DNA of 28,335 bases. It comes from a virus (lineage: Duplodnaviria; Heunggongvirae; Uroviricota; Caudoviricetes). A program made the position numbers and the translations under genes. The stretch lies in the IMG/VR virus record IMGVR_UViG_2737471849_000009; one strand, written 5' to 3'. This document shows positions 2,493-7,754 of the stretch, piece after piece. Position 1 is the stretch's first letter, and every line of letters begins with the position of its first letter. The notes beneath the pieces were generated by a model, which had not been told where the DNA came from, searched no databases, and was given only the letters and a program-made list of their open reading frames with translations.

Positions 2493-3320
2493 TTATTTAA
2501 TCTGGATAAATGGTGTATTGGCACCACTGGTCATGTATTGCGGCAGTGTACCGTTCCACTTGTTGATGGCTTCCAGCTCCATGACGCCTGGGTTCTGGCG
2601 TAGAGCTTCGCCGCGTAAACGAATGGCATCGGCTTCTGCCTGGGCTTTTGTTCGAATGGCATCAGCCTGTCCGGCAGCTTCCGCACGTAGCATGTTGGCC
2701 TCCGCTTCACGTTGCTTGACTTCCTGCTCGCGCTGCAGGGTTTTCTGGTTTGCCGTGACTTTGGCATTAATGCTGTCGATAACGGTTGGCGGGTACTCCG
2801 GCTTACCCACATATGAGAGGCTCATTACCTGAATACCGATAGGTGTCATCTCTGCCTGAATGTCTTTAAGAGCTTCATCCAGCAGCTCAGACTTGCCGCC
2901 GTCGATAAATTTGTCAGTGGTCATTTGGCTGGCCAGTCGGTTGAGTGCGTCGGCGATCTTCTGGCGCAGGTCAGTGTCGGTAATGTCATCCACGCCTTTG
3001 CGGTAGGTCTGAAACACCGTGGTAACTTTGGATGGATCAACTTTGTAGGCCACGCCAATGTGATAGCCGATGGTTGTACCGTCACTCATCTGGAAACTGA
3101 ACGGTTCATCGTAGGTCTTCATTTGTTTGAAGGTGGGGAAGATATAAACTTCAGTATTCCAGCCAGTCCAGTAGCGACCAACACCGACCACCTCACCGAC
3201 GCCTTTGTCGTCGCCCAGTTTATTTACCTTGATGCCAACATTACCTGGTTCAACGCGATCGCAACCGACAAGGCCAATAGTCGGCAGAACAATGGCTAAA
3301 GCAAAAATAATTTTTTTCAT
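2493..3320 (-). CDS. SPFH/band-7 (prohibitin/HflC-like) family lipoprotein
   Basis: 275 aa; N-terminal signal peptide with lipobox LVGC; C-terminal Ala/Glu/Arg-rich coiled-coil segment (QREQEVKQREAEANMLRAEAAGQADAIRTKAQAEADAIRLRGEA) typical of SPFH proteins. Confidence 0.75.
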   Translation of the reverse strand: MKKIIFALAIVLPTIGLVGCDRVEPGNVGIKVNKLGDDKGVGEVVGVGRYWTGWNTEVYIFPTFKQMKTYDEPFSFQMSDGTTIGYHIGVAYKVDPSKVTTVFQTYRKGVDDITDTDLRQKIADALNRLASQMTTDKFIDGGKSELLDEALKDIQAEMTPIGIQVMSLSYVGKPEYPPTVIDSINAKVTANQKTLQREQEVKQREAEANMLRAEAAGQADAIRTKAQAEADAIRLRGEALRQNPGVMELEAINKWNGTLPQYMTSGANTPFIQIK

Positions 3321-4850: not shown

Positions 4851-5303
4851 TTACTCCTTTGCAGCATTGCTACCAGTCAATAACCACATCGGATCGCAGC
4901 CAAGAATATTTGCCAGTGGGATAAGCATACTGATAGTTGGTTCATACTCTCCGCTCTCCCACTGGATGATGATTTCTTCATCAAGAGCGAGCAGCCTGGC
5001 GAGTTCGGCTGTTGTTAAGCCGCAGGCTTCGCGTTGGGTGCGAAGGTTAACCAGCCAGCTTTCAGGGAAGGATTGTTTTTGTTGTGCAGGAGAAGCAGCA
5101 GATAGAGCATATTCATGGATAAATTCCATTACCTCAATGCCCAGTTCCTTTGAGCGAGCACAATCCAGAAGATGGAATGTGCGTACAGCACTTAGCAAAT
5201 TTGCAATATTTAATGCAAAGGAATCAAGTTCTAAGCCCTTAAGCGTAACACAGCCGCAGTTGATAAAATTAGTTGTTTCTGGAGTTGCTTTTAGTGTCTT
5301 CAT
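4851..5303 (-). CDS. HTH (XRE-type) domain protein with uncharacterised N-terminal domain
   Basis: 150 aa; C-terminal segment LTTAELARLLALDEEIIIQWESGEYEPTISMLIPLANILGCDPMWLL matches the XRE helix-turn-helix pattern; first gene after the pL-like promoter. Confidence 0.55.
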   Translation of the reverse strand: MKTLKATPETTNFINCGCVTLKGLELDSFALNIANLLSAVRTFHLLDCARSKELGIEVMEFIHEYALSAASPAQQKQSFPESWLVNLRTQREACGLTTAELARLLALDEEIIIQWESGEYEPTISMLIPLANILGCDPMWLLTGSNAAKE

Positions 5304-5356
5304 ATATCCACCAACAATTTTAAATTGAATTAAATCAAGTTATAATTGATGGTGCG

Positions 5357-5385
5357 ATATTATGCTTTGGGAAATAGGCTGTCAA
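5357..5385 (-). promoter_or_regulatory. pL-like sigma70 promoter (TTGACA-N17-TAATAT) for the leftward accessory operon
   Basis: Minus strand reads cTTGACAgcctatttcccaaagcaTAATATcg: consensus -35, 17-nt spacer, near-consensus -10; positioned between the cI terminator and the first early-left gene as in lambda. Confidence 0.55.
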
Positions 5386-5412
5386 GAAAAAATTGATATC
5401 GTATATTTCAGG

Positions 5413-5438
5413 CAGAAAAAAAACGGGCAAAGCCCGTT
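5413..5438 (-). terminator. Intrinsic terminator downstream of the repressor gene (bidirectional shape)
   Basis: Hairpin CGGGC-aaa-GCCCG flanked by an A8 run on one side and T-rich sequence on the other; on the minus strand the stem is followed by U8, 12 nt after the cI stop. Confidence 0.55.
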
Positions 5439-5449
5439 AAAATCAAAGA

Positions 5450-6139
5450 CTAACCAAATCTGTTTATGTTGAATGGTACTGATGAGATCACTTTAGACTG
5501 GATATAAAGCAGAGCTAACCCCTCTTTTTCGATGCTCCATGGTTGATAATTGGGGTTATCAGATAACACCATGATTTTGCTTCCAATTTTTTGAAGCCTT
5601 TTCACGTAGCATTCTCCATCAAAACAAAATGCATAAATACCATCGCCATCAAAATAAGTTACTGTCTTATCAAGAAAAAGAAGGTCGCCAGGTGAGATTG
5701 TGGGAGCCATACTGTCTCCTCTGGCGTTACCTATTTCTATATTTTTGAATGCCCGATTTCCAACAAGACGTCGGGCATATTCAGGATCAAGTTCTATTGA
5801 GCGCACTACATCTATCAAGTCACCACGGACATGAGTTCCATCACCGCAACTGAACTCAACATCAAGGACATTAAACACGACGCTATCTGTTCTTGTCTGG
5901 TGTTTCTCTGGCGAGGAGAAGGTCGGTGAGGGGTCTTCACCTAAGAACCAGGATTGTGGATAACCGCTAATCTCTGATAACTGCGCAAGCTTATCACTCC
6001 GTGGAAATGTCTTTCCTGTTGTCCAGTACTGCACTGATTGCGCACTCACACCTAACTTACGGGCCAGTTGAGCTTGAGTCCATCCTTTTGCTTTCAGCAT
6101 CGCGGCTATACGATTTTCCGTGTTTTTGACGTTCTTCAT
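5450..6139 (-). CDS. cI: CI-like prophage repressor (HTH plus LexA-like S24 peptidase domain)
   Basis: 229 aa; N-terminal HTH (WTQAQLARKLGVSAQSVQYWTTGK); C-terminal peptidase motifs GDSMAPT (Ser) and VKRL (Lys); divergent from a Cro-like gene. Confidence 0.85.
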   Translation of the reverse strand: MKNVKNTENRIAAMLKAKGWTQAQLARKLGVSAQSVQYWTTGKTFPRSDKLAQLSEISGYPQSWFLGEDPSPTFSSPEKHQTRTDSVVFNVLDVEFSCGDGTHVRGDLIDVVRSIELDPEYARRLVGNRAFKNIEIGNARGDSMAPTISPGDLLFLDKTVTYFDGDGIYAFCFDGECYVKRLQKIGSKIMVLSDNPNYQPWSIEKEGLALLYIQSKVISSVPFNINRFG

Positions 6140-6272
6140 GACCAGGTCCTGTGGGTTTCTTTACAAGGATAAATCTTTACTTGATTTTAGTGTATTCGAT
6201 CCTTTTGCAACTTGCATGTTAATTTAATCTTGATATATTCTTGATTCATAAAGTTAATATTGGTGCTTTGTT
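6140..6272. promoter_or_regulatory. Divergent promoter/operator region between cI-like and Cro-like genes
   Basis: 133-bp AT-rich intergenic region with three direct CTTGAT repeats (about 6192, 6229, 6240) and a TAATAT -10-like hexamer; the CTTGAT motif recurs next to the pL-like promoter. Confidence 0.5.
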
Positions 6273-6572
6273 ATGAAAGGAAATGATTACGACAAACTTC
6301 GTACATTAATTGCGCAAAATGCCATAGCGCGAAATCTTGGTGTGACGCCGCAAGCGGTGAATCAGTGGTTTTCAAAAAACACAATTCCTGCTCGTTTTGT
6401 TTTACGCGTATGTGAAGTAGTTGCATGGAAGGTCACGCCACATGGCTTAAGGCCAGATCTTTATCCTCACCCTGAAGATGGAATTCCTGATTCGTTACGC
6501 AAAATTTCAAATCCAAGCCTAGCGCGCACGGAAGATGGGCAGAGTGATTCATCAGAAATGTCCACGCGATGA
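6273..6572 (+). CDS. Cro-like HTH regulator (YdaS-type)
   Basis: 99 aa; HTH segment IARNLGVTPQAVNQWFSKNTIP; divergent from cI across the operator region. Confidence 0.65.
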   Translation: MKGNDYDKLRTLIAQNAIARNLGVTPQAVNQWFSKNTIPARFVLRVCEVVAWKVTPHGLRPDLYPHPEDGIPDSLRKISNPSLARTEDGQSDSSEMSTR

Positions 6573-6648
6573 ACGGTTACTGAACGAAAAAAGAAAAGCC
6601 GGGCCGCACTCCGTCAGCCCGACTTATTCTGATTAGTAAGGGGATTTC

Positions 6649-7509
6649 ATGATGATCAATAAACAAAAATTAGTCAACCCTGAAAACCTGCCAGTGATTG
6701 AGTGGCAGGGGGTACGCGTAGTTACCACTGAAACGCTGGCGGCGGGATATGGCACGGATGAAGCTAATATCCGTAAAAATCTGTCGCGCAATCTTGAGCG
6801 CTTTGAAGATGGGAAACATTATTTTCTTTTAACTGGTGATGCCCTGAAAGCATTTAAGGACAGAGTGACTATTGGTCACTCTGTTGGAAGAAATGCGCGT
6901 TCACTCACTCTCTGGACAGAACGCGGCGCTGCCCGCATGTCAAAAATCGTCGATACAGACGAGGCCTGGTCGTTCTTCGAAAAAATGGAGCAGGCGTATT
7001 TTCGTAAAGCAACGCCTTCTTCAAACACTATTCCAGACTTTGACGATCCGATCGCTGCTGCTGAAGCGTGGATTGAAGCCAAAAAATCCGAACGCCTTGC
7101 TCTCGGGTATGCAGAGCGTCAGGCTCGCTACATCAGCAAACTCGAAAGCCATCTCGCCGATGGCATCACTCCTGTGCAGTTCTGCAAACAACTCAACGGT
7201 GTAAACACTCGTCAGATTAATGCGTTCCTTGAAGAGCGTAACTGGCTGTATGACGACCGTCCGGAGGCTATGTATCCGCGCTGGCGTGTAAAAGCGTATG
7301 CACGTGACCAATACCTGACTGAGCGTTCTGGGCAGGTTGAGCAGGAAAACGGGGAAATACGCGAGATTTTCAAACCACTCCTGAAGAAAAAAGGTGCCGC
7401 CTGGTTATATCGCCATTATCTGAACGGTGAACTACCGATGAAGAAAACATGGGATGGGCTGTTTACCCATAACACTGAGCTCGCGAATCTTTTACAGGAG
7501 AACAAATAA
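6649..7509 (+). CDS. Antirepressor (ORF6N-type N-terminal domain plus Ant/KilA-C-like C-terminal domain)
   Basis: 286 aa; N-terminal domain (LPVIEWQGVRVVTTETLAAGYG ... LTLWTERGAARMSKIVDTDEAWSFFEKMEQAYF) is paralogous to ORF 13301..13789; longer C-terminal domain typical of phage antirepressors. Confidence 0.75.
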   Translation: MMINKQKLVNPENLPVIEWQGVRVVTTETLAAGYGTDEANIRKNLSRNLERFEDGKHYFLLTGDALKAFKDRVTIGHSVGRNARSLTLWTERGAARMSKIVDTDEAWSFFEKMEQAYFRKATPSSNTIPDFDDPIAAAEAWIEAKKSERLALGYAERQARYISKLESHLADGITPVQFCKQLNGVNTRQINAFLEERNWLYDDRPEAMYPRWRVKAYARDQYLTERSGQVEQENGEIREIFKPLLKKKGAAWLYRHYLNGELPMKKTWDGLFTHNTELANLLQENK

Positions 7510-7718
7510 TGCAAACCAAGACGTGTGTAACTGGTGATGTCGATCTGAAACCTTGCCCGTTCTGCGGAAATCCGGAAGTACAACTCATTGAGGTGAAATA
7601 TTTTCTGGATGGCGATGATGGTTATTACGTCGCATGTACTTGCTGTAACGCAAACCAGATCCCTGATTCGAAAGAACGTGCTGTTCATGACTGGAATCAG
7701 CGCGAAAACGCGGATTGA
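7509..7718 (+). CDS. lar: Lar-family restriction alleviation protein (zinc-ribbon)
   Basis: 69 aa with CPFCG ... CTCC four-cysteine pattern typical of Lar/RalR-like proteins; start overlaps the antirepressor stop (TAATG). Confidence 0.6.
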   Translation: MQTKTCVTGDVDLKPCPFCGNPEVQLIEVKYFLDGDDGYYVACTCCNANQIPDSKERAVHDWNQRENAD

Positions 7719-7754
7719 CGGCGAGTAGGTACAAAATGATCCGCAACCAACATA

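Follow-up and report, generated by a model that had tools for sequence, protein, structure and literature searches.

A 17-bp dyad common to the right and left control regions of a proposed lambdoid immunity switch in an E. coli-type prophage

The window, by which we mean the whole 28,335-nucleotide stretch of viral DNA analysed here, probably carries an immunity switch belonging to a lambdoid prophage of E. coli, in which a LexA-like CI repressor would act on 17-bp dyads at three promoters. The candidate operator unit is an inverted repeat, ATCAAG-N5-CTTGAT, of which CTTGAT is the consensus half-site. The element in the window is a lambdoid prophage of the E. coli type, and positions 5300-6300 match, at 99.9% identity, a prophage on the E. 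coli STEC316 chromosome. The genes of that prophage are annotated in the order int, xis, small genes, a gene for an SPFH protein, a gene for an HTH protein, cI and cro, followed by an ORF6N/KilAC antirepressor-like gene, Lar, replication genes that include one for a DnaB-type helicase, and the antiterminator Q.

Conservation was followed across 90 related loci in four genera, with CI identities from 100% down to 74%. The loci come from E. coli prophages, Stx2 (Stx2a/Stx2d) phages, Pseudocitrobacter faecalis, an Enterobacteriaceae gut isolate, Citrobacter youngae, and metagenomic IMG/VR contigs.

Dyads at the two control regions

The window was scored against ATCAAK-N5-MTTGAT, counting 12 positions. 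This consensus was derived at the leftward promoter pL, and the three matches in the spacer between cI and cro are therefore an independent test of it. Twelve sites in the window score at least 10/12, and six of these fall within the two control regions, which make up 279 bp or 1% of the window. Each control region (both are 31% GC) has three such sites, where 0.06-0.07 would be expected, and none of 5000 composition-preserving dinucleotide shuffles reached three. The sites at 507, 3548, 10708, 14265, and 20990, the last of them inside a 1066-aa ORF, are isolated and were treated as chance matches rather than as operators.

Two candidate operators flank the core of pL. OL1 (5381-5397, GTCAAGAAAAAATTGAT, 11/12) spans -47 to -31 of the promoter, and its half-site CTTGAC contains the pL -35 hexamer. 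It is present in all lineages, the distant ones reading GTCAAGTTAAACTTGAT. OL2 (5334-5350, ATCAAGTTATAATTGAT, 12/12) covers +1 to +17 of pL and includes the CTTGAT of the leader. Its counterpart in Pseudocitrobacter, C. youngae, and metagenomic relatives is a perfect palindrome, ATCAAGTTAAACTTGAT. A possible weak third site at 5313-5329 (AACAATTTTAAATTGAA, 10/12) lies 21 bp from OL2, just 5' of the Shine-Dalgarno sequence of the first pL gene. It scores 10/12 also in locus L004 and about 8/12 in the Stx2 clade, and is absent where the downstream gene differs; we would call it a third left operator only with low confidence.

Three further candidates lie in the cI/cro spacer. The OR3-like site, ORa (6169-6185, ATAAATCTTTACTTGAT, 11/12), spans about -3 to +14 of the proposed promoter PRM; its central 5 bp are variable, and its right half reads CTTGAT exactly in 90/90 loci. 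The OR2-like site, ORb (6218-6234, GTTAATTTAATCTTGAT, 10/12), fills the spacer of the proposed promoter PR and abuts the -35 hexamer of PRM, occupying -36 to -52. Its right half is exactly CTTGAT in 89 of the 90 loci, and its left half, GTTAAT, is invariant though off consensus, a hint of some additional, unexplained constraint. The OR1-like site, ORd (6248-6264, ATAAAGTTAATATTGGT, 10/12), extends over about +1 to +17 of PR, as far as the cro Shine-Dalgarno sequence, GGTG. It has no CTTGAT in the window; in relatives its place is taken by ATCAATTATAGCTTGAT (12/12), GTCAATTGTAACTTGAT, or ATCAAGTTATACTTTAT, the first of these being a perfect palindrome found in distant relatives.

This five-site layout recurs wherever both control regions could be parsed among the related loci. 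Centre-to-centre spacings are 47-48 bp for OL1-OL2, 49-50 bp for ORa-ORb, and 30-31 bp for ORb-ORd in all lineages parsed. The half-site columns are approximately 100% identical, as against 35% for the promoter spacer of pL and 44% for that of PRM, and the pooled half-site matrix reads A/g, T, C/a, A, A, G/t, with A4 and A5 invariant. Dyads of apparently one specificity, five conserved sites of 17 bp, are thus found at OR and OL alike, overlapping the early promoters.

Regulatory genes, binder and recognition unit

The cI gene (5450-6139, - strand) encodes a repressor of 229 aa with an N-terminal HTH_3 domain (Pfam, 5e-9) and a C-terminal Peptidase_S24 domain (4e-17). It belongs to PHROG 4, transcriptional repressor (9e-54), and a sequence search of the PDB matches it to UmuD. 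Residues C98, G99, S143, and K180 are invariant in five diverged homologues, as is the linker motif FSC98-G99DG, which contains the putative Cys98-Gly99 cleavage site; Ser143 and Lys180 form a putative S24 catalytic dyad. The protein therefore has the N-terminal HTH and the LexA-like S24 domain with a Ser/Lys dyad that a lambdoid module requires of its repressor. For the DNA-binding domain, the PDB sequence search found no solved homologue, and a set of 50,697 phage records held no characterised phage with more than 45% identity, which points to a distinct immunity specificity.

A small Cro-type HTH gene (6273-6572, + strand) diverges from cI. Its product, 99 aa long, is a member of the YdaS/P22-Cro family (Pfam YdaS_toxin, 1.9e-12; P22_Cro, 8.7e-5) and matches the Cro protein 3bd1 in the PDB (2e-3). 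The putative recognition helices of both regulators, SAQSVQYW in CI and PQAVNQWF in Cro, are kept across related loci, and the Cro motif is invariant in homologues. The first gene of the pL operon (4851-5303, - strand), in the position of lambda N, encodes a 150-aa protein with a C-terminal HTH_3 domain (Pfam, 8.6e-10) that belongs to PHROG 4836, "CII-like regulator" (8e-77). What directly follows pL varies by lineage: an HTH protein of 150-242 aa in E. coli, unrelated small proteins in Pseudocitrobacter and Citrobacter. No N gene was recognisable after pL, and the small downstream ORFs that were scanned gave no Pfam match, although a highly diverged N could have escaped notice.

From the positions of the dyads and their co-conservation with the two genes, we infer that CI probably binds these operators and that Cro probably does so too. 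Genes for three HTH proteins lie within 1.8 kb of one another, and sequence alone cannot name the binder, so operators for a regulator other than CI, either Cro alone or the 150-aa HTH protein, have to be considered; we judge this improbable. The gene for the HTH protein is missing from 12 distant loci that still have all five sites, which excludes that protein, whereas cI and cro are always present. Since the sites persist while the flanking genes differ, they belong to the cI/cro module. As to Cro alone, both CI and Cro are co-conserved with the sites, binding by Cro only would be without precedent for OL, and sites placed over the -35 and the +1 of pL make sense only for a lysogenic repressor.

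A related question is whether the unit recognised is the dyad or the hexamer. CTTGAT occurs on the + strand at 6180-6185, 6229-6234, and 6240-6245, and on the - strand at 5334-5339, where it runs on as CTTGATTT. It is not over-represented in the window (20 observed, 17.5 expected), and its four occurrences within cI encode Leu-Asp. In the 133-bp cI/cro spacer there are three copies on the same strand where 0.10 would be expected, a count that none of 20000 dinucleotide shuffles attained; when any complex hexamer is allowed, three copies are reached in 4.8% of shuffles of that spacer.

If the third of these copies, at 6240-6245, is taken for the right half of a dyad, the resulting site (6229-6245) scores only 9/12. 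This copy is exact in 64 of the 90 loci, where the 6180 copy is universal and the 6229 copy lacks one locus. The variants are CTTGAA (8 loci), CTTGTG (5), and TTTGAT (1), with unrelated sequence in the 12 distant loci, and all three variants occur even where CI is 99-100% identical to that of the window. Variability among loci with near-identical CI, and unrelated sequence in the distant ones, imply a constraint different from that on the 6180 and 6229 copies; by this comparison, the third CTTGAT is no conserved operator half-site. Its local occurrence is nevertheless improbable by chance, and the operator scheme does not account for it. The bases CTTG at 6240 track the 150-aa HTH gene, being present in 77 of 78 loci with the gene and in 0 of 12 without it, a co-occurrence confounded by phylogeny because only two or three deep clades are involved. 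In the leader copy, the G is not conserved, and the Stx2 clade reads ATTGAT.

An earlier note on this DNA had read the three spacer copies as direct repeats and the CTTGAT sites as operators, with a further copy in the pL leader. The copies are all present, the leader one (5334-5339, - strand) being part of OL2, and the two regions do share operator-like sites that contain CTTGAT. The hexamer, however, is only the right half of a dyad, so that the repeated unit is an inverted rather than a direct repeat; the 6180 and 6229 copies lie in conserved candidate operators, and the 6240 copy does not. OL1 and ORd had been missed.

The hexamer might nonetheless be the functional unit in its own right, the three direct repeats and the leader copy being bound head-to-tail as by P2 C or lambda CII. 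Three same-strand copies in 133 bp would suit this, as would the 11-bp spacing of the second and third copies, one helical turn, and the company that the third copy's CTTG keeps with a gene classed as CII-like. We nevertheless think it unlikely, slightly more so than a binder other than CI. Each conserved CTTGAT is paired, across exactly 5 bp, with an inverted half, and the OL sites of distant relatives are perfect palindromes. ORd and OL1 contain no exact CTTGAT in the window yet are conserved, the third copy is unconserved even among loci with identical CI, and the company of the CII-like gene is open to the phylogenetic confounding described above.

That the two regions resemble each other only by chance, being AT-rich, intergenic, and promoter-like (the -35 consensus includes TTGA), with no operator shared, deserves almost no credence and is refuted as far as computation allows: over the window as a whole, neither CTTGAT nor ATCAA-N7-TTGAT with up to 2 mismatches is more frequent than chance predicts, and both regions are poor in GC, but composition-matched shuffles never attain three sites per region, and the half-sites are invariant across four genera in which adjacent non-coding DNA is only about 35-44% identical.

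Promoters, terminator and proposed mechanism

The leftward promoter pL (5357-5385, - strand) consists of TTGACA (5385-5380), a 17-bp spacer, and TAATAT (5362-5357), matching the consensus at 10/12 positions. Its geometry, a -35 hexamer TTGACn, 17 bp, TAnnnT, 6 bp, and then OL2, is kept in all lineages around a spacer that is only 35% identical. A rightward promoter-like sequence at 5319-5346 (TTTAAA-16-TATAAT) has its TATAAT at the centre of OL2; this is lost in relatives, and the match is probably due to chance.

For the cI/cro spacer we propose a -35 hexamer common to both promoters at 6212-6217, read as TTGCAT for PR on the + strand and as ATGCAA for PRM on the - strand, and identical in 90/90 loci. 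The proposed -10 of PRM, TACACT (6189-6194, - strand), is 17 bp from ATGCAA. A hexamer T-A-N-A-N-T stands at exactly this distance in all 90 loci (TACACT in 80, TAAAAT in 7, TAAACT in 3), across a spacer that is 44% identical. The proposed -10 of PR lies at 6234-6241 (+ strand), as TATATT if the spacer is 16 bp or TATTCT if it is 18 bp, and every lineage has a TAnnnT hexamer 16 or 18 bp from TTGCAT (TATTAT, TATCCT, TATTCT, TACTCT, TAATCT, or TAACCT). This suggests that PR (TTGCAT-16/18-TAnnnT) and PRM (ATGCAA-17-TACACT) point in opposite directions from the same -35 base pairs. Transcription from PRM would then begin near 6182 (- strand), and cI would have a leader about 43 nt long that includes the Shine-Dalgarno sequence AGGA. 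As -35 hexamers, both proposed sequences are poor matches to consensus, 3/6 each, and a fully shared -35 is unusual; the invariance of 6212-6217 could serve only one of the two promoters.

Other assignments fared worse. A PR with the OR2 half-site TTGATA as its -35 and a -10 inside ORd was rejected, for in several lineages the sequence 17-18 bp downstream does not look like a -10 hexamer (for example GTGGAA in locus L089). The alternatives for PRM, TTGCAA-15-TAAAAT and TTAACA-17-TCGAAT, rely on hexamers that are not conserved.

Following cI is an intrinsic terminator (5414-5438, - strand), with a GC-rich stem of 7 bp, AACGGGC-UUU-GCCCGUU (5438-5422), a loop of 3 nt, and U8 (dG -10.5 kcal/mol, z = -3.3). 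The Pseudocitrobacter terminator has the same stem and another loop (z = -5.7). The terminator is present in the clade of the window and in distant genera, and absent in the Stx2-phage clade. After cro, a hairpin at 6596-6625 was considered as a counterpart of tR1 and discarded, its folding energy on the + strand being no better than that of shuffles (z = 0.05). No Rfam family matched within 5300-6300.

On these points the earlier note holds up. The lambda-like gene order that it described is seen here as cro, control region, cI, terminator, and leftward promoter; the strong leftward promoter and the intrinsic terminator are both as it had them, and the other features it listed, the CTTGAT copies, cI, and cro, were likewise all found where it had placed them.

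We propose that CI, with its HTH domain and S24 autopeptidase, binds as a dimer to the ATCAAG-N5-CTTGAT dyads, and that Cro binds to the same sites. In a lysogen, CI at OL1 and OL2 would bracket the core of pL and switch off the left operon, from the HTH regulator through xis and int; because OL1 contains the -35 and OL2 covers +1 to +17, the operon would be expected to stay off. CI at ORd, over the PR start and the ribosome-binding site of cro, and at ORb, in the PR spacer, would silence cro and the early-right genes. ORa overlies the PRM start, so that high levels of CI could fill it and bring about negative autoregulation; alternatively, Cro could shut off PRM there. The terminator would stop PRM transcripts short of the pL genes such as xis and int. 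On SOS induction, RecA-stimulated cleavage at Cys98-Gly99 by Ser143/Lys180 would remove CI's control, and Cro could then act at the same operators.

From ORb, which abuts the -35 of PRM, CI could also activate that promoter. Lambda OR2 is centred at about -42 of PRM. The proposed PRM has ORb centred near -44, which is 2 bp more upstream, and activation is therefore uncertain. OL1 and OL2, and likewise ORa and ORb, are about 4.5 helical turns apart; the members of each pair thus face opposite sides of the DNA, and this speaks against simple pairwise cooperativity in the style of lambda. More tentatively, and with rather more doubt than belief, we raise the possibility that the right control region has a geometry without a described counterpart in lambda, 434, or P22, with one shared -35 and one CI dimer that is at once the repressor of PR and the activator of PRM. 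The other right operators would then lie 30 and 49 bp from a single dual-role operator, leaving no place for the adjacent-dimer cooperativity of lambda.

Relation to known switches and distribution

The mechanism is a variation on a textbook theme and introduces no new principle: it is ordinary on/off control of the lambda type. The immunity region of lambda comprises PRM-cI-rexAB-timm, OL-PL, and OR-PR-cro. Like lambda, the window has divergent cI and cro genes, a CI with an HTH and a putatively self-cleaving S24 domain, 17-bp dyads common to the right and left control regions, three candidate right operators that lie over the PR start, next to the PRM -35, and over PRM, and a terminator between the cI transcript and pL, a feature missing in the Stx2-phage clade. 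The specifics, as predicted here, set it apart. The half-site is ATCAAG. Operator centres are 30-31 and 49-50 bp apart in OR and 47-48 bp apart in OL, compared with about 23-24 bp in lambda, and the OL sites bracket the promoter core, while those of lambda are in tandem. A single -35 hexamer seems to serve both PR and PRM, and cI appears to have its leader and Shine-Dalgarno sequence instead of being leaderless. The putative CI cleavage site is Cys-Gly, as in UmuD, rather than the Ala-Gly of lambda. There is no rex, and after pL an HTH regulator gene comes first in place of a recognisable N.

The operator of phage 434 is ACAA-N6-TTGT, 14 bp long, and that of P22 is ATTTAAG-N4-CTTAAAT, 18 bp long. 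The dyads of the window resemble both in being short and A/T-rich, with a CAAG/CTTG-like core and a variable centre, and in their proposed recognition by repressor and Cro alike through Gln-rich recognition helices. They differ in length and in half-site spacing, being TCAAG-N5-CTTGA. The Stx phage 933W, whose operator and early promoter region is the subject of Tyler, Mills & Friedman 2004 (a study cited in PMC8951638 and PMC8456039), reportedly has three OR sites and only two OL sites. It too is a lambdoid, Stx-associated switch, and the count of three plus two operators is the same as that proposed here, whereas its CI and its operator sequence are unrelated to those of the window.

In the literature searched on phiP27 and Stx-phage operators, we found no description of operators for this CI clade or of this motif, and a published survey of Stx-phage CI clades catalogues the clade at the protein level, with operators not described. 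The map given here supplies concrete candidate operators and promoters for a CI clade so far catalogued only as proteins.

A group of Stx2a/Stx2d-converting phages carries the same immunity region at approximately 78-80% nucleotide identity, among them Stx2a phages with a CI that is 94% identical. Given the identical recognition helix and the operators in common, we predict that this non-Stx prophage, of which STEC316 and PhiR49_2 are examples, is homoimmune with the Stx2a/Stx2d clade. If so, an Stx phage could be silenced by a resident prophage of this type, or the two could be induced together, and such cross-immunity or co-regulation between Stx phages and cryptic or non-toxin prophages would bear on toxin induction. 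Among complete E. coli genomes, the immunity region was found in 142 of 5426.

RNA modules and antirepressor-type genes

Two modules combining isrK with C4 antisense RNA were found on the plus strand, each at the Rfam gathering threshold: one at 7790-7978, and a second at 13055-13250, which also carries c4-a1b1 targets and lies directly 3' of the gene for antiterminator Q (12632-13027). Both modules overlap ORFs labelled 'Phage_ASH' by Pfam, and each of these ORFs is either fused to a Pfam-recognized domain of antirepressor type or lies next to one: Rha (7715-8398) for the first and ORF6N (13301-13789) for the second. The arrangement looks like RNA control of antirepressor-like genes, of the P1 immI type or the Salmonella IsrK type, and such control looks like a second regulatory layer alongside CI/Cro. 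The 'Ash' ORFs may, in part, be RNA genes mis-called as ORFs. The genes at the two modules are joined by a third antirepressor-type gene in the prophage, the first after cro (6649-7509, plus strand), which encodes an ORF6N and KilAC (Ant/Roi-like) protein according to domain and PHROG matches.

Terminators and hairpins beside cI and cro

The cI terminator (5414-5438, minus strand) is retained in the clade of the window and in distant genera. No stable hairpin (z = +0.46) was found in the region equivalent to 5405-5449 in the Stx2a/Stx2d-phage clade (related loci L001, L002, and L005) or in the 2015C-4136 type (L004). Transcripts from PRM, the proposed cI promoter, may run into OL/pL in phages that lack the terminator. 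Between cro and the next gene lies a GC-rich hairpin with an 11-bp stem (6596-6625); it has a T-run on the minus strand only, and its plus-strand fold showed no advantage over shuffled sequences. This hairpin may be a tR1 analogue or a terminator of leftward antisense transcripts.

Operator flanks and the first pL gene

The predicted operator OL2 with its flank (ATCAAGTTATAATTGATGGTGCG, 5334-5360) and the predicted operator ORd with its flank (6248-6274) are direct repeats, 70% identical, and in distant relatives both repeats finish in CTTGATGGTG. This likeness suggests either an origin by duplication or a recognition that would extend to flanking bases as well.

The first gene under pL (4851-5303, minus strand), a position held in lambda by N, here encodes a 150-residue HTH_3 protein of PHROG 4836, 'CII-like regulator'. 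The third CTTGAT of the cI/cro spacer (6240-6245) forms with the ORb half-site a direct repeat, TTGA-N7-TTGA, that recalls the TTGC-N6-TTGC of lambda CII. Among the 90 loci compared, 'CTTG' stands at the third-CTTGAT position in 77 of the 78 with the HTH gene and in none of the 12 without it, a co-occurrence that could be a coincidence of phylogeny.

Shared immunity regions and accessory genes

The immunity region matches two separate places in each of two chromosomes, those of E. coli 28RC1 (NZ_CP015020) and NCCP 13914 (NZ_CM167688); one chromosome can thus harbour two prophages that are predicted to share an immunity. Tandem prophages may account for some of the 'Stx2a phage' records with lengths near 90 kb. 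The prophage also carries accessory cargo, namely an SPFH-domain (band-7) membrane protein gene in the early-left operon (2493-3320, minus strand) and a Lar restriction-alleviation gene (7509-7718, plus strand).
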